DNA of 52,776 nucleotides from Parcubacteria group bacterium GW2011_GWA2_47_26 (lineage in GTDB: Bacteria > Patescibacteriota > Patescibacteriia > GWA2-47-26), in NCBI GenBank assembly GCA_001001705.1, contig LCOG01000008.1:1-52776 (forward strand), given 5' to 3'. The position numbers and the translations under genes are program-made. This document shows, in pieces, positions 7,979 to 51,802 of this stretch (the first letter of the stretch is position 1; the number at the start of each line of letters is the position of its first letter). The notes beneath the pieces are model-generated. The model was given only the letters and a program-made list of their open reading frames with translations, was not told the origin of the DNA and ran no database searches.

Positions 7979-8014
7979 GTCCCGTATGATTGCAAGGGGG
8001 ATGGTGTGGATAAC

Positions 8015-8037: not shown

Positions 8038-8048
8038 GCCCTTATCAT

Positions 8049-8195
8049 GGGACTGTTGCCGAATACCATTTCTACTGCAAGTTAAGAATTTTGGCTGCGA
8101 CTTTGTGAAACATTCTCAACATATACGCCGTATATGCTTCAAATGTTTCACTTCGTCTCGCTCAAAATTCTTACCTTTCGTAGAACCATGTGTCC
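8049..8195. mobile_element. MITE-like element copy 2 with a degenerate right terminus
   Basis: The first 132 nt (8049-8180) differ from copy 6 (48839-48970) at one position. Confidence 0.8.
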
Positions 8196-12968: not shown

Positions 12969-13257
12969 TTAAGCCATCGCTCCATTTATAAGCTTTAAAT
13001 CTATGCGACACCTCATCCGGCGAGTAACTATACTCAATTTTTGAAGCGCTGCCGCCCAATTTTGAATATATGGTTTTTTTATCAAGCACAACCGGTTGAG
13101 TCGTGCGCTCTAATTTCATTTTGCCTTGCGGGCTGTCAAAACTAATAAATTCAACATACGCGTTCGGTATATATTCCAAATCATACCGGCCTTCTTCAAC
13201 CGCCTTGAATTTAGTTTTAACCATTGCTTTTATCTCATTCCACTTGTCGTCGCGCAT
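12934..13257 (-). CDS. hypothetical protein
   Basis: I place the start at the ATG at 13255-13257 (MRDDKWNEIK...), which is the last 3 nt of the right inverted repeat of the GIY-YIG unit. No family motif. Confidence 0.45.
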   Translation of the reverse strand: MRDDKWNEIKAMVKTKFKAVEEGRYDLEYIPNAYVEFISFDSPQGKMKLERTTQPVVLDKKTIYSKLGGSASKIEYSYSPDEVSHRFKAYKWSDGLNEWEEVKAPPI

Positions 13258-13550
13258 ACCCGGTGTCACAACTTCGATTTATAGTATAAGATTAAACGTT
13301 TTGCAAGAAAACGGCGTCCCCGAGTTGTCTTCAGATATTGCTCGCGTCGGCGCGCATCTTCTTCGTTGGTACATACTTCCGCATAAATGAACCGCATAGG
13401 TAGTCGTGATTTTGTGGAGAATACTTCTCCTTTATAATGTTGTAGAAGTCTTTGTTTAAGATTAGTTGTAAATCCTATATACCGATTGCCATCTTTCCTG
13501 CTCTCTAATATATAGACCCAGAAACCTATCGAAGTTGTGGCACCGGACAT
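13258..13550 (-). mobile_element. 293-bp unit: GIY-YIG nuclease ORF bracketed by 17-nt inverted repeats
   Basis: Left arm ATGTCCGGTGCCACAAC (13550-13534) and right arm GTTGTGACACCGGGTAT(G) (13272-13255) are complementary at 15 of 17 positions. The same arms bound the shorter copies at 1246-1349 and 42483-42609. Confidence 0.7.
13266..13550 (-). CDS. small GIY-YIG domain nuclease (94 aa)
   Basis: WVYILES...NRYIGFTTNLKQRLLQH...EEDARRREQYLK gives the GIY, YIG, Arg and Glu motifs. The start is set at the internal ATG (MSGATTSIGF), 4 nt after the pilT stop. The track start at 13601 would overlap pilT by 47 nt. Confidence 0.75.
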   Translation of the reverse strand: MSGATTSIGFWVYILESRKDGNRYIGFTTNLKQRLLQHYKGEVFSTKSRLPMRFIYAEVCTNEEDARRREQYLKTTRGRRFLAKRLILYYKSKL

Positions 13551-32095: not shown

Positions 32096-32150
32096 GTGTT
32101 GATTATAACATTTTTCATATCAAGGAGGGGGGGGGGGTACTGTGGATAAC
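32096..32150 (-). promoter_or_regulatory. putative promoter of the giant gene: GTTATCCACA box, C11 tract, extended -10, start codon 6 nt after the -10
   Basis: Minus strand reads GTTATCCACA-gta-CCCCCCCCCCC-tccttgatatgaaaaa-TGT-TATAAT-caacac-ATG. The homopolymer is 32127-32137, the -10 is 32102-32107, and no SD is present. Confidence 0.5.
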
Positions 32151-34824: not shown

Positions 34825-34986
34825 GGGGACTGTTGCCGAATACGCTTTCGTAACGAAAGGTAAGAATTTTGAGCGAGACGAAGCAAAAGGTATGAAGCAT
34901 ATACGCAGTATATGTTGAATAGCTTTTGCAAAGTCGCAGCCAAAATTCTTACCTTGCAGTAGAAATGGTGTTTGGCAACAGTCCCC
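34825..34986. mobile_element. MITE-like element copy 3, full length, inverted relative to copies 2 and 6
   Basis: Termini GGGGACTGTTGCCGAATAC and GTGTTTGGCAACAGTCCCC. TTAG is present on both flanks. Confidence 0.85.
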
Positions 34987-35004
34987 TTAGACAAGTCTAT
35001 TAAC

Positions 35005-35384: not shown

Positions 35385-35544
35385 GGGGACTGTTGCCGAA
35401 TGCCATTTCTACTGCAATCGCGTATATGCGGCTACGGCTTTGCAGAAATTTTTCGACAGATACTGCGTATATGCCTCAAAATTTCTGCTTCGCCTCGCTC
35501 GCATCTTCGCGATTTCGCTACGAAAGCGCATTCGGTACCCGTGC
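35385..35544. mobile_element. MITE-like element copy 4, overlapping the 3' end of the nucleotidyltransferase gene
   Basis: GGGGACTGTTGCCGAATGCCATTTCTACTGCAA...CGCTACGAAAGCGCATTCGGTACCC. Confidence 0.8.
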
Positions 35545-38339: not shown

Positions 38340-39644
38340 TTATAATCCGTGCCTTCCGTCGGGTCCTGCGCCGCCATGGCTTTGATGGCCGACTACATCC
38401 TCGCGACCAGTAGCGAGAAGATAATCTTCAACCATTCCCTTGGGATACCAAAGAGCATACCAGCGATGAGATTCGCCGACTAATTCCTCGTCGCTATATT
38501 TATCACCATAAGCCTGAATCATGTAGCGATAAAAACCCCGCACTGCTTTTGCATGCGCACAGCCGCAATTTCTGTTCATGGTAACATTGTTTGGCCCGCC
38601 GCAGCAGTAACTGCAAGTCATCATGGTAGTAATAAGTTTCTGATATCTTGCTTCTTGTTCGTCTGATAACCTTATGGATGTCTCAAACGCTCCCCATCTA
38701 TTTTGAGCATTTACCGGATCATCAAAAGAAATATCTTCAGGAGCATAAAATGGTTTGCCAGCCGCTATCATTACGACTTTTGCCGCCTCAAGAGGATCCA
38801 GGCCTTTTGGTTCAGCCAGTACTTCAGTGATTGTTGGCCACGGCGCAATTGAAGTAGTTTTGCCATCGGGGTTTACTTTTGGAGCTAAAATCTGACGCTG
38901 GGCTTTTTGCTGAATTCCAAATAGCGCACGCAATCCGCCGCTACTGCGCGAAATGCTCTGCGCCTTAGGCACAAACGAGCCAATCAAGAATTGGTTGACC
39001 GCCAAGATCGCGATAATCGCCCAAACTAAACCATGTCGCAATCGTTTCTGTCGCGGCATAGCTTCTAACTGATGCGCTCCACTATCCGATACGACCCCTA
39101 CTTCGCGTGCACAGCCTTTTGTCTTAAATTTTGCAATGCGTTTTGACGCAAAAGCAATTGAGCCAAGCATTAATCCCAAACTCAAGGCTTTCAATTCCAG
39201 GCCCTTGAGCGGAAAAATGCTAATTCCTCCGCTAACCCCGATCAGCGTAAGCAAAAATGTTCCACAGACAGGACAACCTGAAGCAAACAAGCTTGTCAGC
39301 GTTCCGCCAACACCCCAGCCCGCAGCGTTTTTGTTTTTTGCATCTGTCGTGTGCCTAAAAAGCCATGCTAACAAAGCCGCGGACACTCCAAAGGCGATAA
39401 TCGCCGTGACAGTCATCAGCAAATATAGTGCCACATAAATCACGCCCAGAATTCTAGCTTTGCCCAACTCAAACGCGCTAAAATAGCTCCCATCCCAAGC
39501 CATGCTAAAGAAAGACGCCAGTGTCGTCGTGCGGCTCAATAACCAAAAGAGTGCTAGGGCAAATATTACACTCGAGGCTATGGCAATTTTACTATATGCT
39601 GATTCGCGCAGGATACTAATAATTACCTTCAGATTTGAACGCAT
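38340..39644 (-). CDS. Cys-rich polytopic membrane protein of unknown function
   Basis: TM region with an intramembrane GCPVCG. The soluble C-terminal domain carries CSYCCGG...CGCAHAKA. The start is set at ATG 39644 (MRSNLKV). Confidence 0.5.
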   Translation of the reverse strand: MRSNLKVIISILRESAYSKIAIASSVIFALALFWLLSRTTTLASFFSMAWDGSYFSAFELGKARILGVIYVALYLLMTVTAIIAFGVSAALLAWLFRHTTDAKNKNAAGWGVGGTLTSLFASGCPVCGTFLLTLIGVSGGISIFPLKGLELKALSLGLMLGSIAFASKRIAKFKTKGCAREVGVVSDSGAHQLEAMPRQKRLRHGLVWAIIAILAVNQFLIGSFVPKAQSISRSSGGLRALFGIQQKAQRQILAPKVNPDGKTTSIAPWPTITEVLAEPKGLDPLEAAKVVMIAAGKPFYAPEDISFDDPVNAQNRWGAFETSIRLSDEQEARYQKLITTMMTCSYCCGGPNNVTMNRNCGCAHAKAVRGFYRYMIQAYGDKYSDEELVGESHRWYALWYPKGMVEDYLLATGREDVVGHQSHGGAGPDGRHGL

Positions 39645-39670
39645 AATAATATTAGTGAAATAACCCAAAT

Positions 39671-39770: not shown

Positions 39771-40031
39771 TTAACACCCGCCCACCATTGATTGCAAGCC
39801 ATTGCCACTCGCTGCCGCCGGCGCAGCTCCTCCCGACGACGCGGCTTGAGCAGGACGCACGCTAACAGCGCCCTTGAGACGAGCGAGCTGCGCGGTTTGC
39901 AAACCAGCCACTAGAGCAATGAGGATTAAAGCAACAATCTGCCAATTAAGTTTTGGCACGCGCAGAGTAATGGTTCCCCCTGCAGTTGAACTTGTATTTA
40001 CGGAATTAAGATTGTGTAATTCTTCAGACAT
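39771..40031 (-). CDS. small single-pass membrane protein ending in Gly-Gly-Cys
   Basis: 86 aa. TM helix WQIVALILIALVAGL, an Ala/Ser/Gly-rich tail, and C-terminus LQSMVGGC. Confidence 0.4.
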   Translation of the reverse strand: MSEELHNLNSVNTSSTAGGTITLRVPKLNWQIVALILIALVAGLQTAQLARLKGAVSVRPAQAASSGGAAPAAASGNGLQSMVGGC

Positions 40032-40080: not shown

Positions 40081-40974
40081 TTATTCGTGATGGGATGACA
40101 TATCACCGGCACTCGGCTGACTCACGCTCGGCGGGACTGCCGCCGCATCTTCCGGTGACGGGGACTTGATAACTTTATTGGTTTTTAAATCATGATAAGT
40201 GCCCATCAGTGACTGGCCGTCTCGGAATACATACATGCCGTCTTTTTCAACTGTGCCAACCGACGGCCAGACTTGCTGGAACCGCGGATATTCTGCCAAG
40301 TCGCCAGTAAGCAGCAGTGTCGGCGCGCTTGCTATTCTATATTGCCTGACAAGACGCCTTCCCTCCGCATCATTGCGATCCATAAATTTTTCCTCCGCTG
40401 GCTGCATAGCCAGTCCAGCCAAAGCCTGGCGATGGAGCGTCGGATCATAACATTCCTTACATCCCTTGTCTCCCAGATATATCGCGGTAAAACGCCCCTT
40501 TACCGCGCCTGAAGCTACTTCAACATAAGGCGGCGGAATATTTGTTACAATAAGCGTGCCATCGGCTTCGCTGCGGCCCAAATTTTGCAAAAATGAGGCC
40601 TGATCAAACAGCTTCGCCGTATCTCCGCTAATAATTAAGGTCGGTACGCGCGTCACACTATATTTTTGGACAAGCTCGGCTCCTGCTTGTGACGCATACT
40701 CCAGACTTTCCTCTTTGCTGATTTTAACTTTACCGTTTTCTTTAAGCGGAGCAACTAAATTATTAATATCAAAACATTCTAGACAGGTTGGCGCAGTTAA
40801 AATTGTAAGTGCAATTTCCGCTGGTGCTTCCGCCTCCTCGGCCGCTTTTTTCTCGCCATCAACTTTATTTTGCATTCTGTATAAAAGCAAGGCGTTGACA
40901 ACTAAAAGTCCGCCCACCGCTAAAAAAATTAAAACGTGACCAAACGTGCTTAAGTTTATTTTTAATTTTCTCAT
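40081..40974 (-). CDS. membrane-anchored protein with two thioredoxin-like modules (CLEC and CKEC)
   Basis: TM anchor, then TAPTCLECFD...VTRVPTLIISG, and a second copy DKGCKECYD...IASAPTLLLTG. The start is set at 40974 (MRKLKINL). Confidence 0.6.
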   Translation of the reverse strand: MRKLKINLSTFGHVLIFLAVGGLLVVNALLLYRMQNKVDGEKKAAEEAEAPAEIALTILTAPTCLECFDINNLVAPLKENGKVKISKEESLEYASQAGAELVQKYSVTRVPTLIISGDTAKLFDQASFLQNLGRSEADGTLIVTNIPPPYVEVASGAVKGRFTAIYLGDKGCKECYDPTLHRQALAGLAMQPAEEKFMDRNDAEGRRLVRQYRIASAPTLLLTGDLAEYPRFQQVWPSVGTVEKDGMYVFRDGQSLMGTYHDLKTNKVIKSPSPEDAAAVPPSVSQPSAGDMSSHHE

Positions 40975-40996
40975 TATGGTAAAATAATATTTTATT

Positions 40997-41881
40997 TTAA
41001 TTTGATGAATTATAGTAGACCGAGGGCGCCGCGTCAAGCATAGGCCTCACGCATTGTTGCCGAGGGTGCATTGGACACATATTCACTCCTGCAGCCGCTG
41101 GTCTCACGAGAATCGTACCCGCAACCCCTAATACAATAGCAAGTGTTATAAAAACACTGGACACATCTAACTGAAAGCTGGCTTTCCAATTTGGTTTTAT
41201 AAGCCGGTCAATGCGTATGCTCAAACGTGAAGCAAAGCTAGCGGCTATACTCGCAAATTCAGGCCTTTGCACCATTTGTAAAAGAACGCCGCCCAAGGCC
41301 TGACGGCTATCTACCCGCTCATCTGCCTCTATTTCAGCCATAGTGCGATATTCAGAAATTAAATTGCGCAAAAACGGAGCAAAGAAAAAACTGTACTTTA
41401 CTGTATCCGTGACAAAAAACTTAAGGGGATGACGTTTTGCAACATGGTGCGACTCGTGCTGCAATATAGCGGCAAGCTCATCTTTTGATAAATTCCGCAC
41501 ACAATGCGCGCAAAGCGCGATTTTAGGACGCAAAAAACCAAAGGTAAATGATTCGCAATGGCTGCCGTTGAATAAAAACAATCCTTTCATTCCCTCATAT
41601 ACGCTAACATGTTTAAGCAATGTTCTTGTACGTATCAATGCGATCACTGCGTAAGTCATACCAACCAACACACCGACGCTAAACAAACCCGCAAAGCCAA
41701 GAATTGCCCAATCTCGCGCTGTTATCAAAGTATCCATAGCACAAGAACAACCCCCGGACGCGGACACGCGATCATTAACAATATGTGCCGCCGCTCTAAA
41801 CAATAAAATCTCCAATCCTGCCAGTACTGCAACTGTAGCCGCGATAGCCAAAACAATTTTTCTTTTGGCAGACCTTACCAT
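40997..41881 (-). CDS. M56-family (BlaR1/MecR1-like) membrane metalloprotease without a sensor domain
   Basis: LAAILQHESHHVAKRHPLKFF (HExxH), multiple TM helices, and a position directly after a BlaI-type repressor gene. Confidence 0.7.
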   Translation of the reverse strand: MVRSAKRKIVLAIAATVAVLAGLEILLFRAAAHIVNDRVSASGGCSCAMDTLITARDWAILGFAGLFSVGVLVGMTYAVIALIRTRTLLKHVSVYEGMKGLFLFNGSHCESFTFGFLRPKIALCAHCVRNLSKDELAAILQHESHHVAKRHPLKFFVTDTVKYSFFFAPFLRNLISEYRTMAEIEADERVDSRQALGGVLLQMVQRPEFASIAASFASRLSIRIDRLIKPNWKASFQLDVSSVFITLAIVLGVAGTILVRPAAAGVNMCPMHPRQQCVRPMLDAAPSVYYNSSN

Positions 41882-41901: not shown

Positions 41902-42063
41902 TAGACCTGTTGCCTTATAACTTTCCTGGCGTTTTTGATGCCGTTTGAGCCGAAACTAATGAAGGACGAGGAGGAATAGCTCATGCTATTTCGACGAGTT
42001 CTGAATTTGTTGCAGGCCAAATCGGTGCGAAAACGGCCGGGAGATTATAAGGCAACAGGTCTA
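41902..42063. mobile_element. variant MITE with GACCTGTTGCC termini
   Basis: TAGACCTGTTGCCTTATAA...TTATAAGGCAACAGGTCTA. The right terminus contains the TAA stop of the repressor gene. Confidence 0.75.
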
Positions 42064-42482
42064 CTGTCATTCTGATCCGCCGTTGAGGCGGAACGGTTTA
42101 ATTTCTGACGCAATTCTTCCAACTGGCGCGGATCAACCTCTTCCAGAACATCAACAAATTGCGCTATTGCCACTGATCCAAAATTGCGAAGGATTTCCCC
42201 GAAAAGCACCCTGCTCGTTTTGGCATAAAACGCATCGCGATCATAAGCAGGCTTATAAATAAAACTCCCGTTTGGCAACTCCTCCCTAGATAAATATCCC
42301 TTTTCTGTCATGCGCGTCATCACGGTCATAACCGTTGTGTAAGCCAGATCCCGCCGCCGCCCGACTATCTGCAATATATCGCGCACAGTGCCCGCGCGCC
42401 TTTGCCAAAGCGCCTCTAAAATCGCTTTTTCAAGCATGCCTAAAAGTTGTCCCTTTTTCTTGGTATTCCTAATCAAGGCCAT
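42045..42482 (-). CDS. BlaI/MecI/CopY-family winged-helix repressor
   Basis: LEKAILEALWQRRAGTVRDILQIV...AYTTVMTVMTRMTEKGYLSRE. The last 16 codons come from two repeat termini. Confidence 0.8.
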   Translation of the reverse strand: MALIRNTKKKGQLLGMLEKAILEALWQRRAGTVRDILQIVGRRRDLAYTTVMTVMTRMTEKGYLSREELPNGSFIYKPAYDRDAFYAKTSRVLFGEILRNFGSVAIAQFVDVLEEVDPRQLEELRQKLNRSASTADQNDSRPVAL

Positions 42483-42609
42483 ACCCGGTGCTACAACACT
42501 TTATGCCAATATTGTTGCGTTAAATTCTTGAATCAAACTTATATTTATTGCCTTGCATTTCTACTTGTGCCGACGCCACTTTAATACCGACAGTTGTAGC
42601 ACCGGGCAT
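42483..42609 (-). mobile_element. 127-nt deletion derivative of the GIY-YIG inverted-repeat element (copy B)
   Basis: On the minus strand ATGCCCGGTGCTACAAC...GTTGTAGCACCGGGT followed by the ATG of the repressor gene. The mini-ORF reads MPGATTVGIKVASAQVEMQGNKYKFDSRI. Confidence 0.7.
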
Positions 42610-42614
42610 ACTAT

Positions 42615-42631
42615 TACTACAGCATGTAGTA
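42615..42631. promoter_or_regulatory. 17-bp palindromic operator candidate
   Basis: TACTACAGCATGTAGTA (TACA-N3-TGTA core). A second copy with one central change lies at 48765-48781. Confidence 0.55.
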
Positions 42632-42674
42632 TTGCCTGACTTATGTCAAATGAATCATGTGGATAACTAGCTTT

Positions 42675-43715
42675 CTAATCAAATCGCGCATCAGCAAAAA
42701 AAATTTCCACAGCCTTGCAGGGATCAACACTACAATAAAGCACATCGTAGACTGTTTGAATAAGCGGAGCCCGTATTTTATGTTTGCGCGCAAATTCGTA
42801 AAAAGATCTTGTTGCGCCAACCCCTTCAAAAGTATGCGTTTTATCCTTAAAAACAAATTTGCATGAACCCTCGCGGCAAATTCTCTCTCCCAGCGCGCGA
42901 TTGCGCCCTTCGCCAAGCCCCGTGACAATCATATCCCCCAAACCCGCAAGACCATGCACTGTTGAGGATTTGCCGCCCGCCGTTTTCACTACCTCGCTCA
43001 TTTCATGAAGCGCGGCTGTAGCCATAAATGCCTTGGTATTCATAGTTAAACGCATGCCGTCGCACATACCCAAAGCAATCGCGTACACATTTTTTAATGC
43101 GCTGCAAATTCCTACTCCTCTAAAATCGCTGGACAACGCTACTTTAAACGAGCGCGATTCAAATACATGGCGCACTAGCTCTCTAGCTTTGGAATTCTCG
43201 CTGGCGGCCACAACCGCAGTTGGTACGCCCTGCACAAATTCTTTGGCAATAGACGGACCGGAAATCGTAACTACACTGCGCCGCAAAATCGCCGGCAGCA
43301 CCGACTGGATAACCTCATGCATGGTTAAAAAAGTTTTTTCTTCCAAACCTTTAATGACATGGGCAATAATAACCCCACCACTTCCTCCCCTTAAATTAAG
43401 GGGAGGTGTAGGAGGAGTTATACAATGCGCCAGATGTTGCGTAGTCGCACGCACATACGGAGATGCGCAGGCCAAAACCACTAACGCCGACTTTTCTACC
43501 GCGGTTTGCATGCTCTTCTCCGGAATAATATTATGCGAAAGTTTGATGCCGGGTAAAAATTGTTTATTTTCGCCATCCGCTTTAATGGCTTGAATAGTCG
43601 CGGGATTATAATCCCAAAGCCAAACCCGGTGGCCATTTTTGGCAAGAATCTGGGCCACCGCGGTTCCCATGTTTCCAGCGCCTAAAACAGCCAAGCGTAT
43701 TTTTTTGCTAGGCAT
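42675..43715 (-). CDS. gpsA: NAD(P)H-dependent glycerol-3-phosphate dehydrogenase
   Basis: LAVLGAGNMGTAVAQILAKNGH (Rossmann fold), NKQFLPGIKL and ALKNVYAIALGMCDG. It contains a palindrome-encoded insert. Confidence 0.85.
   Translation of the reverse strand: MPSKKIRLAVLGAGNMGTAVAQILAKNGHRVWLWDYNPATIQAIKADGENKQFLPGIKLSHNIIPEKSMQTAVEKSALVVLACASPYVRATTQHLAHCITPPTPPLNLRGGSGGVIIAHVIKGLEEKTFLTMHEVIQSVLPAILRRSVVTISGPSIAKEFVQGVPTAVVAASENSKARELVRHVFESRSFKVALSSDFRGVGICSALKNVYAIALGMCDGMRLTMNTKAFMATAALHEMSEVVKTAGGKSSTVHGLAGLGDMIVTGLGEGRNRALGERICREGSCKFVFKDKTHTFEGVGATRSFYEFARKHKIRAPLIQTVYDVLYCSVDPCKAVEIFFADARFD
43366..43408. repeat. palindromic insert translated in frame within gpsA
   Basis: CCTCCCCTTAAATTAAGGGGAGG core (43374-43396). 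It encodes PPTPPLNLRGGSGGV. Confidence 0.7.
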
Positions 43716-43843
43716 ATAAACAAACGCCTAAATCATTAAAACTCTACTTGCAACAGGATCCCTCATGCTTACCACCTTCATGCCCTTCGTGGCTAGAAAC
43801 ACCGCTTAGAACTTAATTTTTTATACTAAACCTCGACCTTTGT

Positions 43844-44320
43844 TTACCCTAACCAACTGCGCAGTCGTGGAAAACGCGCGCAAATTGGCAAACCAGCACA
43901 CCAATTATCAAGTCCATAAATCCGTCCCGCGCGTATCGCCGCTAAAAATATCAAAGCGAGTGCATAAATTATATGCTCATCCACGATATACGAGTGAGGT
44001 TTAATGTATGGAAAACTCAATACTGGAAAATAATAAAGCAGCATCAGGAGAGCGCCGAGCACTGAACTCAATCGCACAAAAATCCCAAAAATAAGCGAGA
44101 TGCCGAGCAAGGTTAAACCCCATTCGTTAATAAAATTGGTAATCGGCAATGCGCTGGGCTGCAAAAACCATTGATAAAAACTCCCGAATGTCTGGGCATT
44201 TTGTAAATAACCCGCCGCTGACCAAGAAGGATTTAATATCTTAGTAACCCCCGCGTAAAACATGTACCACCCCATGCCTAGACGCAGGATAAAAAGTGAG
44301 ACTTTCTGGGCCTTATTCAT
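43844..44320 (-). CDS. DoxX-family membrane protein
   Basis: LFILRLGMGWYMFYAGVTKI followed by 4 TM helices. Length is 158 aa. Confidence 0.65.
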   Translation of the reverse strand: MNKAQKVSLFILRLGMGWYMFYAGVTKILNPSWSAAGYLQNAQTFGSFYQWFLQPSALPITNFINEWGLTLLGISLIFGIFVRLSSVLGALLMLLYYFPVLSFPYIKPHSYIVDEHIIYALALIFLAAIRAGRIYGLDNWCAGLPICARFPRLRSWLG

Positions 44321-44370
44321 AATAATTTAGTCTTAAATTTTAAAGTTTCCACAGCTAATATTGTACCACT

Positions 44371-44808
44371 TTACATCCGGCTTTTCAAAAGTTTGCCCGT
44401 AATATAGGCAATACCTGCTATATTTGATAAAAGCCCAACCCAAAAGAGCTGAATTTGATACTGACCAACTAGAGAAACCAGACCGGTTACCCCCAGTATG
44501 GGCAAAATATTAACAAGGTAGTGCGCGCAGCACGAGATCATGGCGCCCGTGGAAGTTGTGCCCGACACTGCCAGCACACCTGAAGCGCGGACACGATTAT
44601 GTAGCGAATTCTTAAGATAAGTATAAAGTCCGACTTGAATTCCAAACCCCAAAGCAAGACTCACAATAAAATACCAAAATTCAAAAAATTGACCTCGCGC
44701 AAAAGGCCATCCTGAAATCAAGGTCAGCAAAGTAAAATATAAACCTAATAAAAGTGATGAGGCTAAAATGCCAAACGCTATAGACTTTAGCCGAGCGTTT
44801 ACGGCCAT
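44371..44808 (-). CDS. membrane protein with an intramembrane CCxH motif
   Basis: 145 aa and 4 TM helices, with GAMISCCAHYLVNILP. No family is assigned. Confidence 0.45.
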   Translation of the reverse strand: MAVNARLKSIAFGILASSLLLGLYFTLLTLISGWPFARGQFFEFWYFIVSLALGFGIQVGLYTYLKNSLHNRVRASGVLAVSGTTSTGAMISCCAHYLVNILPILGVTGLVSLVGQYQIQLFWVGLLSNIAGIAYITGKLLKSRM

Positions 44809-45515
44809 ACTAATTCACGCATGGAAACACCAGCCAGATCCGTTACTACTAGCTTCGCGGCTCCCTCGATTTTAGGGAAACGCGCTATAAATTCCAGATG
44901 ATGCCCGCTTCCCTCTTGCTGTATAGCAGTCGGATTGATCATATTTGCTTGTCCATCCTGAAGTGCGATTTGCCGTTCCGGACTAAACGCGCTCAAATCT
45001 TCTGAATGCGTATTAATATTTATCGTGAAAACAAGTTCATCGCCCTCTTCAACAAACTCTGCGTCAACAGTTACATTGCCTTCCCCCGCGTCTGTTTTTA
45101 ATTCGCCTCGCCTGGAAACTGCCACAGAACTTTCCTGTGTTCCACCACTACTTGATGCGGTCGGAAGAGCGCATCCGCTTTCAGCCACAAGTTTTTCCAA
45201 TCCTTGTTCCCCTTCTAACTTTTTACCGCCCGAAAATGTCCACGTTGGATAACCATTAACTCCTGCTTCAATGCATCTTGCCGGATGTTTTGGGCATTCA
45301 ATGTATTGAACATAACGAAAAGAGTCTCCAAAAGCTTTTTTCTCATTTTGACAATGCGCGCACCACTCCGCGCCGTACATCGTTACTCCTTTATTGGTAA
45401 GACACTGCGCAAAAGCATCCAATGCTCCACTAGGCACTGCACTCGGGCGAAATAAATAGGATCCCCCACTTACTACCGCAACGATTATGACTGCCCCAAA
45501 TAAATATTTTTTCAT
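44799..45515 (-). CDS. secreted thioredoxin-like protein of the type fused to bacterial VKOR, plus a C-terminal beta domain
   Basis: MYGAEWCAHCQNEKKAFGDSFRYVQYIEC...GVNGYPTWTF matches the Trx-like partner domain of VKOR homologues. Confidence 0.65.
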   Translation of the reverse strand: MKKYLFGAVIIVAVVSGGSYLFRPSAVPSGALDAFAQCLTNKGVTMYGAEWCAHCQNEKKAFGDSFRYVQYIECPKHPARCIEAGVNGYPTWTFSGGKKLEGEQGLEKLVAESGCALPTASSSGGTQESSVAVSRRGELKTDAGEGNVTVDAEFVEEGDELVFTININTHSEDLSAFSPERQIALQDGQANMINPTAIQQEGSGHHLEFIARFPKIEGAAKLVVTDLAGVSMRELVWP

Positions 45516-45630
45516 CCCGTTAGAAGCAGGTCGCGGTCATGCCGCTCTGCTGATTAAGATTCAATGAGATAAAACTGACTTTTTGCATACAGTGGTTTAG
45601 TGAGGCATCGCGACCGCGGCTTCTAACGGG
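45516..45630 (-). repeat. 115-nt hairpin element filling the stop-to-start spacer (CCCGTTAGAAG/CTTCTAACGGG arms)
   Basis: On the minus strand CCCGTTAGAAGCCGCGGTCGCG...CGCGACCTGCTTCTAACGGG followed directly by ATG. It begins 1 nt after the upstream TAG. Confidence 0.75.
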
Positions 45631-45631
45631 A

Positions 45632-46105
45632 CTAGCAGCACTTATCCAATTTTTTTTCTAAATTTTTTACAGTAACAGAATCGCCGCGATCAATGTCTCG
45701 CGCCGCGCCACGACCGTGTTTACGCACAAAAAATGCGTACATCACAAGACCAAGAATCGCAACCGCAAAAATAAACGTCATCCAGCTCATATATTGTATA
45801 GCGCCGTACACTGCTAAAAATCCAGGCAACACTATCACTAACTTCCACCACATTGGATTTTCGGACGCCCACTTTATTGATTTTTCCCCCTGAAATGCAA
45901 TACCCACAACTGTACCACCCATTAAAATCGCGATGATCAATTGCCACGCCTCTATCTGCAGTGCGCCAATAAGCACGCCGAATATTAAAATCAACCAAGT
46001 TCCGCTTACACCCACGCAAGCCGGACAAATTTTGATCGCCATAAACCGACTTACTCCCCAAACGATGAGCGTAATAGCTGTAATTAGAACAAGAACCAAA
46101 AGCAT
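45632..46105 (-). CDS. membrane protein with a CPAC motif and C-terminal Cys-Cys
   Basis: 157 aa and 4-5 TM helices. KICPACVGV lies at the first TM boundary. The protein ends KLDKCC. Confidence 0.45.
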   Translation of the reverse strand: MLLVLVLITAITLIVWGVSRFMAIKICPACVGVSGTWLILIFGVLIGALQIEAWQLIIAILMGGTVVGIAFQGEKSIKWASENPMWWKLVIVLPGFLAVYGAIQYMSWMTFIFAVAILGLVMYAFFVRKHGRGAARDIDRGDSVTVKNLEKKLDKCC

Positions 46106-46111
46106 ATTTTT

Positions 46112-46894
46112 TTACAACAAGAAAATAATTATACCCAGAGCAATCATGGCCACCCCGCCCCAAATGCGCATCCCTTTTCTTTCTTTTTGCTGCCAAGCTT
46201 GAACTTTTTCCAGCAGCCCGCGATCGCTGGCAATAAGCAATATTACGACAAGCGGAAGAATAAAGATTAGATTGTACAAGATAAGATAGCCTAGTCCCCT
46301 AATAAAATTGGCTTTGTCATGCAAGAGACCCAAAATCATCAAATACGGCCCGCCAGTACAAGGAAATTCGCAAAGGCCAACCAACACGCCAAGAAGGAAA
46401 GCTGTAGGCAGCGAACTCTTTTCCATCAAGGACGCCATCCGATGATGCGCGACATGAGGAATTTTCAGCTTCAATGGAAACTTGGGTATAAATTCATTGA
46501 TCAGGTTTATTCCGCCCAATACAATCAAAAGCAGAGCGCCGACTTTGGCCATAAAATGCGGTGTATTGAAAATGTGCAGAGTCTGCAAAATCCCCAGCCC
46601 GATCATGATGTACACCAAAAATATGCCCGCGATATAGGTACTGCCGATCTTCAAGATGCTTGAACGCAATTTGCCAATGCTTAAAAGAAAAGCAATGGTT
46701 AAAATGAGCACGGAAAACGCGCAAGGATTGATGCTGTCAATAAGCGCTGATATTCCTACCAGCGGAAGCAGCCATTTTCCGCCATTAGACAAATTCCACA
46801 ACGCTGCTGTTCCAAAATTGCCAAAACGAAAAAGCGCGACCAAACCAAAAAGCGCTACTCCAAACGCAATCAATATAGCGATCCGTTTATTCAT
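46112..46894 (-). CDS. CcdA/DsbD-family thiol-disulfide electron transporter
   Basis: LIDSINPCAFSVLI and LCEFPCTGGPYL are the two conserved Cys-containing half-sites. The start is set at ATG 46894 (MNKRIAIL). Confidence 0.75.
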   Translation of the reverse strand: MNKRIAILIAFGVALFGLVALFRFGNFGTAALWNLSNGGKWLLPLVGISALIDSINPCAFSVLILTIAFLLSIGKLRSSILKIGSTYIAGIFLVYIMIGLGILQTLHIFNTPHFMAKVGALLLIVLGGINLINEFIPKFPLKLKIPHVAHHRMASLMEKSSLPTAFLLGVLVGLCEFPCTGGPYLMILGLLHDKANFIRGLGYLILYNLIFILPLVVILLIASDRGLLEKVQAWQQKERKGMRIWGGVAMIALGIIIFLL

Positions 46895-46996
46895 CCCGTT
46901 AGAAGTTGAAGAATAATTTTCTTTTAAGTGTCCGCTAGACGTTAGTCGGCTTCGTCCCGTTAGAGGTAGGACGCGGACTGCGTCCGCTACCTCCAA
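46895..46996 (-). repeat. hairpin element with two CTCTAACGGGA-type motifs, filling the stop-to-start spacer
   Basis: On the minus strand GGAGGTAGCGGACGCAGTCCGCGTCCTACCTCTAACGGGA...CAACTTCTAACGGG followed by ATG. Confidence 0.65.
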
Positions 46997-47539
46997 TCAA
47001 GGCGTTACATTTACGCTAATTTGCAACTGCAGAGGAGCTCCCTCTGAAGTCTCAATAGTGATTGCACGACTGATACGGCCAACTCCTGCTGGTCCGTGCG
47101 CCGCGGGATCATAAACTACATCAATGGTCGCTTCCTCGTCAGGCGCGATGCTTTCATTAATACGCGGAATAATACCATGCCCCGGCATGCCAAACGGCCC
47201 TTTGCGAGTCTCACCATTTATCAAAGTCGCTTCAGTGCACATGCACGAGGTGTACATTTTTACAATTGCAACTGGCTTATCGCCGGTATTCTTAACCTTA
47301 AACGGATGGGTTACTTTTCCGGCCGCCATAGAAATCGTGCCAAAATCATAAGAAAGCATATCTACTGATAGAGTACTAGTACCAGTCTCGCCACTGCCGC
47401 CATTCTGCTCTTCATGACTATCTGTCGGGCTGGCCGGCGCTGGCCCGGCAATCCAAATCAGACCGACTATAATTATTAAAATCATTGCGATACCAAAAAT
47501 CGTGTTTTGATGTTTTTTTATTTTTTCCTTGAAGTTCAT
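46997..47539 (-). CDS. DUF1573-type (ASH/Ig-like) secreted protein
   Basis: YDFGTISMAAGKVTHPFKVKNTGDKPVAIVKMYTSCMCTEA is the family signature. Confidence 0.7.
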   Translation of the reverse strand: MNFKEKIKKHQNTIFGIAMILIIIVGLIWIAGPAPASPTDSHEEQNGGSGETGTSTLSVDMLSYDFGTISMAAGKVTHPFKVKNTGDKPVAIVKMYTSCMCTEATLINGETRKGPFGMPGHGIIPRINESIAPDEEATIDVVYDPAAHGPAGVGRISRAITIETSEGAPLQLQISVNVTP

Positions 47540-47569
47540 AATTTTATTAATATTATGAAAGTTTTATTG

Positions 47570-48076
47570 CTAATGCGCCAACCGTTCAGGAGAGCGATTC
47601 TTATTATCTCTGATAAATTGCACCATACGCCCTTCGTCAAAATTATCTAACTTATCTAAACGCCCCCAAGACGCCAAAGCGATTTTCGCATCATTGCCGG
47701 GGCGATGTGTAACAATGACGCTCCCGGGATAGCGGCGCGCAAGTTCTTGCAATTTCAATTGCGTACTCTCGTCTATATCTTTATAAGCAATCCAAACTCC
47801 GCCATGCTCCAAATTATGTATTACTTGCTCGTCCGGCAATTCCCGATCATAAAATCCCCAGTCCGCGGCTTGCCCGTAATGCCAACCTGAAGTTGGCGGA
47901 TTAGAATTGTAAGGCGGATGAGTTGCACCCATAGCTATGTGTTCCCGTCCCATTGCCGAAACTGCGGTACCCGTCCGCTCCTCTTCCGGCTGAATAGCTA
48001 TATATATCAAACCGTAGATTATTCCAACCAAAACAAATGCCCCGGCTAGATATGTCCAACGCTTTTTAGACTGCAT
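47570..48076 (-). CDS. DUF3105-domain membrane-anchored protein
   Basis: PPTSGWHY and HNLEHGGVWIAY signatures, with an N-terminal TM helix. Confidence 0.7.
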   Translation of the reverse strand: MQSKKRWTYLAGAFVLVGIIYGLIYIAIQPEEERTGTAVSAMGREHIAMGATHPPYNSNPPTSGWHYGQAADWGFYDRELPDEQVIHNLEHGGVWIAYKDIDESTQLKLQELARRYPGSVIVTHRPGNDAKIALASWGRLDKLDNFDEGRMVQFIRDNKNRSPERLAH

Positions 48077-48089
48077 ACCCGTCTAAATT

Positions 48090-48734
48090 CTATTTAAAGA
48101 GATTTTTTCCTAGCTTCAAAATCAACATTATCAATAGCACTACTAACAAAATACCAATCACATACCACAGTGCAACAAAGCCTAAAGCATATGCTGGGCG
48201 TGAAACGCCTAACGCGCCCATCATATTTTGGGACTGCCCCGTAAATCCGCCCATCATGCCCCCGCCCATCATGGAAGCCATCATCGGCATCATGCCCATC
48301 ATTTGATTAACACCACCGGTGGTGCCACCCATCATATTATTTCCGCTTCCCATCACACCGCCTCCTACACCAACACCTGTTTCACATCCACTCATACGCT
48401 TACCCATTGTAACATGCATAGCTTTCTCACCAGCTTCACCCATCATCTGCTGCATCATCGTATCCATAGCTTCGTGTCCTGTACCCATCATCCGTTCCAT
48501 CAAAAATTCTCCAACCAGTCCAAAATCATCATCTTTCAAATCCGTACATTGCACCTTTTTACTGCGCAACCAATCAAAAAGTGCCTCACCCGGATTTTCA
48601 GCACTAGCAAGACTGCTCCCAAGATCAATATTTTCCTCTCCGGCATGCGCACTGACACCCCCAACCATTATAAAAAAGATTGCTAAAACCGCAACACTAA
48701 TGAAAAAATTGATACCGTGCTTATATCGTCTCAT
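48090..48734 (-). CDS. Met/Gly-rich exported protein with a C-terminal TM helix (possible Cu(I)-binding)
   Basis: MMGTGHEAMDTMMQQMMGEAGEKAMH and GGVNQMMGMMPMMASMMGGGMMGG. Confidence 0.55.
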   Translation of the reverse strand: MRRYKHGINFFISVAVLAIFFIMVGGVSAHAGEENIDLGSSLASAENPGEALFDWLRSKKVQCTDLKDDDFGLVGEFLMERMMGTGHEAMDTMMQQMMGEAGEKAMHVTMGKRMSGCETGVGVGGGVMGSGNNMMGGTTGGVNQMMGMMPMMASMMGGGMMGGFTGQSQNMMGALGVSRPAYALGFVALWYVIGILLVVLLIMLILKLGKNLFK

Positions 48735-48764
48735 AGAATGAAATTACTAAAATTATATCTTATT

Positions 48765-48781
48765 TACTACAGTATGTAGTA
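48765..48781. promoter_or_regulatory. second copy of the 17-bp palindromic operator candidate
   Basis: TACTACAGTATGTAGTA. On the minus strand it is followed by aataaga-TATAAT and the Met-rich gene start 31 nt away. Confidence 0.55.
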
Positions 48782-48838
48782 ACACAAAAGTTTTGTCTAG
48801 TCAAGCGTTGTGGATAACTTCTATGTACCCCGCCTAAT

Positions 48839-49000
48839 GGGACTGTTGCCGAATACCATTTCTACTGCAAGGTAAGAATTTTGGCTGCGACTTTGTGAAA
48901 CATTCTCAACATATACGCCGTATATGCTTCAAATGTTTCACTTCGTCTCGCTCAAAATTCTTACCTTTCGCGCACATGGCCGCATTTTTGGCACTGTTCC
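48839..49000. mobile_element. MITE-like element copy 6
   Basis: GGGACTGTTGCCGAATACC...TTTTTGGCACTGTTCC. 131 of the first 132 positions are identical to copy 2. Confidence 0.85.
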
Positions 49001-50464: not shown

Positions 50465-50899
50465 TTAATCTACTTCATAATCACGGTAATCAACTGTCAA
50501 CTCCTCGCCTGCTTTGACGCATCTCACGGTATAAAGGTCGTTTATTCCATTTTTATCTTCCTTCGGTCGCAAATTCGGTTTTTTAGAAGTATTGGCAAAA
50601 AACGATATATTCATTCCATTCAAACCATGCTCTGGTATCCAAACTTTTGATCCTTCATACGTAAAAAAGTCAGCAACCATCTTTTGAATGCCCGGATGAA
50701 GCTCTTCAATCTCATTTTTATCAAACTCTATCCAACGTGTGTCGGCATTGGGTAAAAATGGATTTACACCTTTCGGAATATCCTTGATCGCAAAAATGCC
50801 GATACCATCTATAGGAGAACACTGTAATCTGCAATACGTGTGGCGCAAATTTGCAAGTAATCTAGATTTAAGCCGCCTCACATTTTTTGTAGCACTCAT
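50465..50899 (-). CDS. SET-domain protein (small)
   Basis: SPIDGIGIFAIKDIPKG...FFANTSKKPN...VKAGEELTVDY. The start is set at ATG 50899. Confidence 0.6.
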   Translation of the reverse strand: MSATKNVRRLKSRLLANLRHTYCRLQCSPIDGIGIFAIKDIPKGVNPFLPNADTRWIEFDKNEIEELHPGIQKMVADFFTYEGSKVWIPEHGLNGMNISFFANTSKKPNLRPKEDKNGINDLYTVRCVKAGEELTVDYRDYEVD

Positions 50900-50900
50900 A

Positions 50901-51060
50901 AGACCTCTTGCAGAATAATTTTTCGTTGCGAAATTCAAAAATTTTGAGCGAAAATTATGAAGAATGAGGAAGCGATGTGGCTATATCGTTGACGAATTCT
51001 GAATAATTTGCAGCCAAAATTTTTGAATTGCAGTAGAAAGGATTATTCTGCAAGAGGTCT
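50901..51060. mobile_element. variant MITE with GACCTCTTGCAGAATAAT termini, filling a stop-to-start spacer
   Basis: AGACCTCTTGCAGAATAAT...ATTATTCTGCAAGAGGTCT. The interior shares TTTTGAGCGA, GCAGCCAAAATT and TTGCAGTAGAAA with the main family. Confidence 0.8.
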
Positions 51061-51802
51061 ATACTCGCCAACCCATCACTAAATCATTGGAAACACCATA
51101 AACCATAAACCTCAAGGGTTTTCTAAATAAAAGGCACTTCCCTGTCTTACGCATCATCCTGCGCATCCACCCGATTGAAGGCAAACTATTAGCGGAGCAT
51201 AGATATGGCGATTGCTTTCTTGCTCCAAAAAGCTCGTAGCAAGAATTATCAGCTATCTTTTTTGGATACTTTGGCAAAGGAGCAAGATCGCTGCCATAAC
51301 GCACGGATTTTTTAGGCGGATATTTTTTAGATATTTTTTCGTCAAAAGCGTTCCATTTTTCAAAAATCATGGCTGGAGTATGCACGGTGCCGCGACATAT
51401 TGGTGCGCCACAAAAACATTCATGATCAACACATAACATTTTATCATTTTTATCTATCCCATAAAAATAAGAAACTGTCAATTCTTCTCCTTTAAAAATG
51501 CGCCGGAGAGTAAAGTATAACGTATGACCTTGAAAAGTATACATAGCACAATTCGGGGCACAAGAATGATTAATAAAATGAATTCCTGCGATTCGTGAAT
51601 CAGGCAAGATGCTCACTCGGTCATTATAATACATTTCGTAATGACCGCCCTGCCTTTTTTCGTAATCCTGATCGGCACGCACTACTTTACCTAAATAATC
51701 CCCTATCACTGTTCCGGGTTCAATTTCCGCGCACGCAAAAACTCCGCGGCCTTTATTACGTATTTTTTTCACTTCCCAATAATATTGCGGCAATAAAAAC
51801 AT
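51059..51802 (-). CDS. SET-domain methyltransferase with a post-SET Cys cluster
   Basis: NKGRGVFACAEIEPGTVIGDY, HFINHSCAPNC, FKGEELTVSY and CFCGAPICRG. Confidence 0.8.
   Translation of the reverse strand: MFLLPQYYWEVKKIRNKGRGVFACAEIEPGTVIGDYLGKVVRADQDYEKRQGGHYEMYYNDRVSILPDSRIAGIHFINHSCAPNCAMYTFQGHTLYFTLRRIFKGEELTVSYFYGIDKNDKMLCVDHECFCGAPICRGTVHTPAMIFEKWNAFDEKISKKYPPKKSVRYGSDLAPLPKYPKKIADNSCYELFGARKQSPYLCSANSLPSIGWMRRMMRKTGKCLLFRKPLRFMVYGVSNDLVMGWRV

Follow-up and report, generated by a model that had tools for sequence, protein, structure and literature searches.

The window analysed here, a stretch of 52,776 nucleotides (contig LCOG01000008.1, positions 1 to 52,776 of the forward strand) from Parcubacteria group bacterium GW2011_GWA2_47_26, carries two 17-bp sequences of near-identical palindromic form, each in front of an operon for envelope thiol/metal proteins. 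The first precedes the gene of a winged-helix repressor of the BlaI/MecI family, for which both are candidate operators.

42615-42631: predicted operator 1, a perfect 17-bp palindrome, TACTACAGCATGTAGTA, in the promoter of the repressor operon
48765-48781: predicted operator 2, the 17-mer TACTACAGTATGTAGTA, in the promoter of the operon running from a Met/Gly-rich protein to DoxX

A preliminary description of the window had placed the two 17-mers at these positions and noted that the central base is their sole difference; both were found exactly so, and both fit the frame TACTAC-N5-GTAGTA. When TACTACANNNTGTAGTA was searched for with up to two mismatches, they were the sole matches in the entire window. 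Across 100 dinucleotide-preserving shuffles of the window sequence, the mean was 0.05 matches per shuffled window and none of the 100 reached two, bearing out the earlier remark that two copies are unlikely by chance. Searches with TACTACNNNNNGTAGTA (up to two mismatches) and ACTACANNNTGTAGT (two mismatches) each returned one additional match in the window, for ACTACANNNTGTAGT the number expected by chance. The weak additional site for TACTACNNNNNGTAGTA is TAATACCGACAGTTGTA at 42582-42598, with two mismatches to the operator frame and 33 bp centre-to-centre from operator 1. It was not counted as an operator and is probably none, since it falls within the arm of an inserted element (see below) and is not conserved in the orthologous locus L084.

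Both palindromes are intergenic and lie 5' of minus-strand genes, operator 1 at 132 nt from the repressor ATG (42482) and operator 2 at 30 nt from the ATG of the Met/Gly-rich protein (48734). Almost all genes of the window are on the minus strand; therefore, both palindromes stand upstream of the genes to which the preliminary description had assigned them. The repressor operon (operon A) comprises the following genes.

42045-42482, minus strand: BlaI/MecI-family winged-helix repressor, 145 residues, recognition helix AYTTVMTVMTRM
40997-41881, minus strand: M56/M48 membrane metalloprotease, 294 residues, motif HESHH
40081-41037, minus strand: double thioredoxin-like exported protein
39771-40031, minus strand: small protein ending in MVGGC
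38340-39668, minus strand: Cys-rich membrane protein

The repressor matches PF03965 at 2.4e-22, above the curated cut-off and over profile positions 1-114 of 115. Its matches among solved structures include 2g9w (3e-10), MecI 1sd6 (9e-9) and BlaI 1sd4 (1e-5), and it can be aligned over its full length to 2g9w, 1sd6, 1okr and 1sd4. The protein contains no cysteine and is therefore no metal sensor of the CopY type: the C-terminal CxC metal site of CopY (CxCx4CxC) is absent from its 145 residues, and TIGR02698 scored 36, below the cut-off of 122. Thus, the earlier label of a BlaI/CopY-like repressor holds for the PF03965 family and fails for CopY-type sensing.

The adjacent protease matches PF05569 with 34.3 bits (cut-off 31) together with PF01435. 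No penicillin-binding or transpeptidase sensor domain was detected in it by profile searches, and its match to the 585-residue BlaR1 profile is confined to positions 172-272 and far under the cut-off. Alignment of the protein with four orthologues revealed five invariant residues: C45, H142, E143, H146 and C269. C45 lies within a CxC motif after the first transmembrane segment in four Uhrbacteria M56 sequences, C269 is located in the tail past the last hydrophobic segment, and the Uhrbacteria proteins have a CxHC motif adjoining the catalytic domain, as CAHC in three of them and as CRHC in L086. By analogy with the topology of PetP and BlaR1, the CxC loop and the C-terminal tail would both face outward.

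The second operon (operon B), followed by gpsA, is composed as follows.

48090-48734, minus strand: Met/Gly-rich protein, first gene
47570-48076, minus strand: DUF3105, above the curated cut-off
46997-47539, minus strand: DUF1573, above the curated cut-off
46112-46996, minus strand: CcdA/DsbD-like protein
45632-46105, minus strand: CPAC membrane protein
44799-45515, minus strand: thioredoxin-like protein
44371-44808, minus strand: CCxH membrane protein, motif ISCCAHYL
43844-44320, minus strand: DoxX, above the curated cut-off
42675-43715, minus strand: gpsA, NAD-dependent glycerol-3-phosphate dehydrogenase (PF01210/PF07479)

The gene order had been given correctly before, save that gpsA, which sits between DoxX and operator 1 with a 128-nt gap to DoxX, was omitted. 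This gene may be the last of operon B or a separate unit, so that operon B has eight or nine genes. As regards the earlier annotations, PF03965, M56/M48, DUF3105, DUF1573 and DoxX all exceed their cut-offs, whilst the protein labelled CcdA has only sub-threshold matches (SfLAP, ArsG, DsbD) and the thioredoxin-like labels in the window likewise correspond to sub-threshold Pfam matches, with CxxC motifs visible in the sequences. Profile searches found no beta-lactamase or penicillin-binding protein (PBP) gene behind either operator.

Promoter architecture

Both palindromes share a common layout, in which GTTATCCACA is followed by a -35 box, 12 nt and the palindrome, the putative -10 hexamer (CAnnnT) coinciding with the palindrome centre. 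The elements of the repressor promoter (P1) and of the operon B promoter (P2), with the remaining GTTATCCACA boxes of the window, are listed here.

42658-42667, minus strand: GTTATCCACA box, 27 nt upstream of ACTACA of operator 1
42644-42649, minus strand: -35 hexamer TTGACA of P1, 12 nt upstream of operator 1
42621-42626, minus strand: putative -10 hexamer CATGCT of P1, assigned from spacing, 17 nt past the -35 and in the centre of operator 1
48809-48818, minus strand: GTTATCCACA box, 28 nt upstream of ACTACA of operator 2
48799-48804, minus strand: second hexamer near P2, TTGACT, 17 nt before operator 2, overlapping TAGACA by one base
48794-48799, minus strand: -35-like hexamer TAGACA of P2, 12 nt upstream of operator 2, in the -35 column of the alignment described below
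48771-48776, minus strand: putative -10 hexamer CATACT of P2, inside operator 2
48752-48757, minus strand: alternative -10 hexamer TATAAT of P2, the choice of the preliminary description
32141-32150 and 8005-8014, minus strand: GTTATCCACA boxes upstream of the genes of a 2537-residue and a 121-residue protein

On the coding strand the palindromes read TACTACATGCTGTAGTA at site 1 and TACTACATACTGTAGTA at site 2. A promoter consensus scan lists TAGACA-N17-CATACT at P2, with 9/12 consensus matches. The upstream box is alike at the two sites (AGTTATCCACA) and is separated from the first TTGAC-type hexamer by 8 nt at site 1 and by 4 nt (TTGACT) at site 2. The sequence separating the conserved blocks is not the same in P1 and P2, so these regions do not represent a recent duplication.

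GTTATCCACA matches a perfect DnaA box letter for letter. The window has four exact copies, every one of them intergenic and oriented as the downstream gene. Given the putative -10 hexamers, the box would occupy about -53 to -44, where an activator site, an UP-like element and a DnaA site are all possibilities. A general promoter element was considered and rejected, the box being too rare for this role (four copies in 52 kb, and one intergenic copy per 20-kb orthologous locus).

Judging by the names of homologous proteins, the organism belongs to Candidatus Uhrbacteria, a lineage of the Candidate Phyla Radiation. The layout recurs at orthologous repressors. The contigs L081, L084 and L086, which carry repressor homologues of 55-63% identity, were picked by protein homology alone. 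All three keep the operon order of repressor, M56 protease, thioredoxin-like protein, small protein and a protein of about 245 residues, and their promoters read as follows.

L081: GTTATCCACA-N9-TTGACG-N12-TACTACACAATGTAGTA
L084: GTTATCCACA-N7-TTGACA-N12-TACTACACAATGTAGTT
L086: GTTATCCACA-N8-TTGACG-N12-AACTACATAATGTAGTA

About 10 Uhrbacteria-like lineages have the palindrome 5' of an orthologous repressor, and at every Uhrbacteria operator, these three included, GTTATCCACA precedes ACTACA by 26-28 nt. A DNA-pattern scan of metagenomes for GTTATCCACA-N20-36-ACTACANNNTGTAGT returned 18 stretches, eight of which lie 5' of further repressor orthologues. Elsewhere, L106 carries the exact site 2 17-mer (TTGACG-N12-TACTACATACTGTAGTA) before a different, non-repressor membrane protein gene, and L090 has an operator before the gene of a DsbA-like protein (PF13462, 2.7e-25), neighboured by peroxiredoxin-like and superoxide-dismutase-like open reading frames recognised by eye. 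Two tandem palindromes precede the gene of a CxxC thioredoxin-like protein in L102, and one precedes the gene of a 430-residue protein in L098. Four matches (L091, L094, L096 and L099) were set aside as they apparently fall within one sequence conserved across four contigs; L089 and L092, both ambiguous, were set aside alongside them.

An alignment of 12 promoters, seven of whose rows came from the search demanding GTTATCCACA, has as its invariant columns the GTTATCCACA box, TGAC of the -35 and ACTACA/TGTAGT. The central triplet of the palindrome is asymmetric, and on the coding strand the putative -10 takes the forms CACAAT (six lineages), CATAAT (two) and CATCAT (one); such an asymmetric, -10-like centre is to be expected if the -10 lies inside the operator. 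Where only 7-8 nt separate the palindrome from the ATG, as they do in several lineages, the mRNAs would be nearly leaderless.

For site 2, the preliminary description had proposed that ACTACA-N17-TATAAT is the operative promoter, with the operator covering the -35 and the spacer. A perfect TATAAT does stand 7 nt past the palindrome, and would give a leader of about 11 nt, much like the near-leaderless mRNAs of the orthologous repressors. However, ACTACA matches the -35 consensus at only 3/6 positions, TGAC is found 12 nt upstream of the palindrome in 12/12 aligned promoters, and L106 has the identical 17-mer with no TATAAT downstream of it. We consequently hold this geometry to be rather unlikely, the alignment favouring a -10 inside the palindrome. 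The overlap with the core promoter stands in either case: the TATAAT arrangement alters the geometry of site 2 and not its function.

Several repeated elements lie close to the two promoters. A structured insert separates operator 1 from the repressor ATG:

42480-42610, minus strand: structured 131-nt insert with arms ATGCCCGGTGCTACAAC and GTTGTAGCACCGGGTATG

The insert belongs to a repeated element with other copies at 1243-1350 and 13255-13550 (both minus strand) and, in L084, at 9898-10003 and 10398-10545; it is missing from most orthologous repressor promoters. Its arms, T-ATG-CCCGGTGCTACAAC and GTTGTAGCACCGGG-T-ATG, pair together (-47.2 kcal/mol, z -4.5). Every copy runs precisely up to its host gene's start codon, with TATG on both flanks; the hosts include a DivIC-like gene (1245), a second gene (13257) and, in L084, blaI and the M56 gene. 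The long copy carries a GIY-YIG gene (PF01541, 8.7e-16), with whose reading frame the arm ATG is in frame as the likely start codon (MSGATT...), and the short copies hold only MPGATT... stubs. The insert looks like a mobile GIY-YIG cassette with derivatives resembling miniature inverted-repeat transposable elements (MITEs), targeting start codons.

The repressor and M56 genes are 163 nt apart, and this gap is spanned by a perfect 16-bp long-range stem at 41903-42060 (minus strand), ACCTGTTGCCTTATAA / TTATAAGGCAACAGGT (-63.3 kcal/mol, z -5.6), whose 5' arm includes the repressor stop codon; in L084, a copy of the GIY-YIG-derived element takes the place of the stem. Additionally, palindromic intergenic repeats of about 135 nt occur at 48837-48970, 8047-8180, 34854-34989, 35386-35500 and 50928-51056. 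The first, just upstream of P2, is 99% identical to the second and folds at -65.8 kcal/mol (z -8.9), and both have a GTTATCCACA box on the same side, at a distance of 20-32 nt. These repeats may be a MITE-like or repetitive extragenic palindromic-like element, or a terminator or insulator between transcription units. Rfam gave no match in the region at gathering or E-value thresholds. Further upstream, two tandem SET-domain proteins (50465-50938 and 51059-51802, minus strand; PF00856 at 7.5e-8 and 5.8e-18) are encoded directly upstream of a purD-like gene, an unusual content for a bacterium.

Distant homologues and copper islands

Genome contigs encoding more distant homologues were collected by a profile search with the repressor alignment, yielding at least 80 homologues of at most 44% identity from Patescibacteria, WWE3, Chloroflexi, Actinobacteria, Longimicrobium, Holophagae and others; no close Uhrbacteria homologue was among the matches listed. 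Perfect palindromes 5' of these repressors repeatedly take the form TACTAC-N5-GTAGTA, in the same 17-bp frame as in the window, and a 3-nt centre is the norm for the surveyed clade. Amongst the 80 listed loci, the 22,150 bases just 5' of the repressor hold 38 sites with up to two mismatches (29 loci), against 76 sites in the remaining 1.22 Mb, an upstream enrichment of about 28-fold. Away from the repressor upstream region, 15 of the 34 sites with at most one mismatch fall at +1311 to +1538, which approximates the end of the repressor-M56 pair where the two are adjacent; an M56-like gene adjoins the repressor in 44/80 loci. In the actinobacterial loci, TACTAC/TACGAC-N5-GTCGTA/GTAGTA lies upstream of the homologues. 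Secondary sites precede the following genes.

L001, L047: DsbA-like genes
L020, L024, L028: full-length DsbD
L003, L025: DsbD_2-cupredoxin, with or without HMA
L041: ResB with a divergent redoxin
L022, L027, L033: FtrD-like genes
L009: MacB/FtsX permease
L010 and L012 (both WWE3), also L006: small protein ending in MVGGC

In the WWE3 loci L010 and L012, the MVGGC gene is followed by a gene for a multi-thioredoxin-like protein, and a further site stands before the gene of a CCxH membrane protein. The L010 proteins compare with those of the window as follows.

CCxH protein against 44371-44808 (operon B): 57% identity, 6e-48
MVGGC protein against 39771-40031 (operon A): 40% identity, 3e-16
Multi-thioredoxin-like protein against 40081-41037 (operon A): 33% identity, 1e-44

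Genes of both window operons are thus operator-preceded in WWE3, which is the best evidence that site 2 is a true member of the regulon. The three WWE3 sites overlap candidate core promoter elements, and GTTATCCACA is missing at all three.

In other lineages of the Candidate Phyla Radiation (CPR), the relatives of operon B are found in copper islands. In Liptonbacteria, Paceibacterota, Jorgensenbacteria and a marine lineage, CCxH genes adjoin those of CsoR and of a P1B Cu+-ATPase. The same clusters hold DUF1573, an SfLAP/CcdA-like protein, a membrane protein of about 150 residues and DoxX, and their genes are orthologous to those of operon B for DUF1573, the CcdA-like protein, the CPAC protein, DoxX and the CCxH protein (about 32-66% identity). 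Another Uhrbacteria genome also possesses a CsoR/P1B Cu+-ATPase cluster with operon B orthologues. No intergenic TACTAC operator was present in the CsoR/CopA-island loci examined, and neither CsoR nor CopA was found in the window. Orthologues of the Met/Gly-rich first gene stand elsewhere with CsoR, or with ArsR and a MerA-like reductase. This distribution suggests a non-orthologous displacement, in which the BlaI/M56 pair would have replaced CsoR in this lineage and in WWE3; the same gene content suggests that the signal may be copper, a thiophilic metal akin to it, or thiol stress.

Two further features of the islands were recorded. The CCxH family has 3,176 matches at E ≤1e-10 in CPR, with about 60-66% identity across lineages; it has no Pfam or NCBIfam model, usually adjoins a Cu+-ATPase, and some of its members are labelled Cu+-ATPase in JGI records. 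In the four loci that include the DNA 5' of csoR, a CCCC-N2-GGGG palindrome occurs just ahead of that gene (L107 16313, L110 6221, L111 6160 and L112 4134), and is a candidate CsoR operator for CPR copper-island lineages.

Proposed regulon and competing explanations

We predict that the BlaI/MecI-family repressor of 42045-42482 has the two palindromes as its operators and that they define a two-operon regulon, with a probability of about three in four. The preliminary description had read the palindromes as operators of the BlaI/MecI/CopY type, with joint control of the two operons; in favour of this are their conservation at orthologous repressors, their enrichment across phyla and the operator-preceded orthologues in WWE3.

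From the sequences we infer DNA binding, the transcription starts, repressor proteolysis, the M56 topology and the identity of the signal, and propose the following scheme. A repressor dimer would bind TACTAC-N5-GTAGTA across the -10 of a sigma-70-type promoter and so exclude RNA polymerase. At site 1 this would autoregulate the repressor-M56-thioredoxin-like operon, and at site 2 it would place the operon from the Met/Gly-rich protein to DoxX under the same repressor. Induction would follow when the activated M56 protein cleaves or degrades the repressor, as in BlaR1/BlaI and PetP/PetR. The likeliest cue may be copper or thiol (disulfide) stress in the envelope, sensed via the conserved cysteines of M56, in the CxC loop after the first transmembrane segment and in the C-terminal tail, both of which are predicted to face outward.

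Some observations weigh against this scheme. The -10 candidates of the window, CATGCT and CATACT, are weak hexamers assigned from spacing. The metagenome matches are biased to this promoter type, because the scan required GTTATCCACA, and the signal is deduced from gene content only. Moreover, the orthologues of operon B's first gene in L107-L109 have no palindrome and stand beside CsoR/ArsR-type regulators, so that site 2 is lineage-specific; in the three Uhrbacteria loci L081, L084 and L086, a single operator was found within 10 kb either side of the repressor.

The last two points would be accommodated if only site 1 worked, as an autoregulatory element, with site 2 non-functional or a recent copy and operon B regulated otherwise. 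We consider this improbable. The exact 14/14 match is very unlikely by chance, and site 2 keeps both the 12-nt register to the -35 and the 28-nt register to GTTATCCACA whilst the intervening bases differ, which speaks for selection and against a recent copy. Secondary operators before thiol/metal genes are, furthermore, the rule in distant relatives, and the CCxH family itself is operator-preceded in WWE3.

It is more improbable still that the palindrome is bound by another factor, or is a promoter or recombination element that lies near BlaI genes by coincidence. The second conserved box, GTTATCCACA, does hint at further factors at these promoters; however, the association with PF03965 spans phyla and that of GTTATCCACA does not, the half-site is identical to that of an experimentally defined MecI operator, and autoregulation from a promoter-overlapping site is the family norm (PMC8457756). 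Least credible of all is a classical sensor of beta-lactams or cell-wall antibiotics like BlaR1/BlaI, to which the family membership of repressor and protease might point, as the 294-residue M56 protein corresponds only to a part of the BlaR1 profile, no PBP sensor domain was detected in it, and the genes behind the operators include no beta-lactamase or PBP.

More broadly, a cross-phylum class of BlaI/M56 systems can be envisaged as a dedicated pathway for thiol/copper stress in the envelope. It would use TACTAC-N5-GTAGTA, sense through outward-facing cysteines of the protease, control DsbA, DsbD/CcdA, ResB, cupredoxin-HMA and related genes, and have displaced CsoR in some CPR, the present genome included; its scope would span Patescibacteria, WWE3, Chloroflexi, Actinobacteria, Longimicrobium and Holophagae. 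We advance this tentatively, at somewhat less than an even chance. No description of such a regulon was found in the searchable literature, absence there being weak evidence. What appears new is the assignment of an operator in CPR, the conserved promoter layout, the cross-phylum frame, the thiol/copper targets and the apparent swap of regulators.

To our knowledge, CPR bacteria are uncultured and their transcriptional regulation is almost uncharted. The present analysis offers a concrete regulator-operator-regulon assignment with a defined promoter layout for this group. If true, it would extend the BlaI/BlaR1 proteolytic scheme, so far known from antibiotic resistance and a cyanobacterial copper switch, to the handling of disulfides and copper outside the cytoplasm in many phyla. 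It would also provide a case of regulator replacement, CsoR against BlaI/M56, over one gene island, and the operator consensus is directly usable for regulon annotation in thousands of metagenome-assembled genomes.

Comparison with known systems

The CsoR copper islands of CPR share the operon B orthologues with the window, which differs from them in having neither CsoR nor CopA. Mycobacterium tuberculosis BlaI (Rv1846c) is the best solved-structure match of the repressor (2g9w), and the two have the recognition helix AYTTVM in common. The M. tuberculosis partner Rv1845c is not known to carry a sensor domain, and the BlaI regulon of that organism comprises several loci, including blaC-sigC, ATP synthase and membrane proteins, and is not known to include the Dsb/copper set. 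The sequence TACTACATATGTAGTA, searched for as an operator candidate, gave no match and was not used.

The systems MecI/MecR1 and BlaI/BlaR1 of Staphylococcus aureus and Bacillus licheniformis resemble the window in their PF03965 repressor with an adjacent M56 protein, and in a palindromic operator over the promoter with autoregulation, which in the window is indicated by position and conservation. The S. aureus mecA operator bound by MecI, ATAAGACTACATTTGTAGTATATT, consists of ACTACA/TGTAGT half-sites around a 2-nt centre (PMC1935004, Table 1); its 6-bp half-site is thus identical to that of the window. The centre differs (3 nt in the window, 2 nt in TACA-NN-TGTA), as does the presence of a single dyad per window promoter. 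The window protease, in contrast to MecR1 and BlaR1, has no penicillin-binding sensor domain, and the targets are not beta-lactamase or PBP2a. The motif usually quoted for the family is TACANNTGTA, and the cop box has been refined to RNYKACANNTGTMRNY, that is, KACA-NN-TGTM (PMC7253601). BlaI_0696 of Clostridium thermocellum binds GTCTAT repeats spaced five bases apart (PMC8457756).

CopY/CopR proteins belong to the same family and have TACA/TGTA-type half-sites over the promoters of metal-handling genes (PMC7253601). However, the cop box has a 2-nt centre whereas the window sites and all orthologues have 3 nt, and CopY senses Cu/Zn through its C-terminal CxC without a partner protease whereas the window repressor is cysteine-free.

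The closest functional parallel may be PetRP of Synechocystis, in which a sensor-less M56 protein degrades its BlaI-family partner in a copper-dependent manner and which acts as a copper switch between plastocyanin and cytochrome c6 (bioRxiv 10.1101/2020.07.31.226407). PetR binds GACA-N3-TGTC between the -35 and -10 of petE (bioRxiv 10.1101/2020.07.31.226407). As in the window, a BlaI-family gene adjoins that of an M48/M56 protease without a beta-lactam-binding domain at its C-terminus, the inverted half-sites of the operator flank 3 nt (ACA-N3-TGT in the window) inside the core promoter, and the regulon is very small; the cue for PetRP is a metal and not an antibiotic. Conversely, the half-sites differ (TACTACA in the window, GACA for PetR), and the window targets are envelope thiol/metal proteins in place of photosynthetic electron carriers. 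The petRP mRNA is unchanged after copper, whereas site 1 lies on the promoter of the repressor itself; PetP has two loop methionines as candidate sensing residues, whereas those of the window M56 protein would be conserved cysteines. Copper dependence is known for PetRP; for the window system it is hinted at circumstantially by the operon B orthologues in CsoR/CopA islands. The TACA/TGTA half-sites and the 3-nt spacing described previously are both borne out, the latter being less unusual than was then implied, given the N3 of PetR. Relative to MecI, BlaI and CopY, the 3-nt centre is thus a genuine departure, yet one with a precedent.

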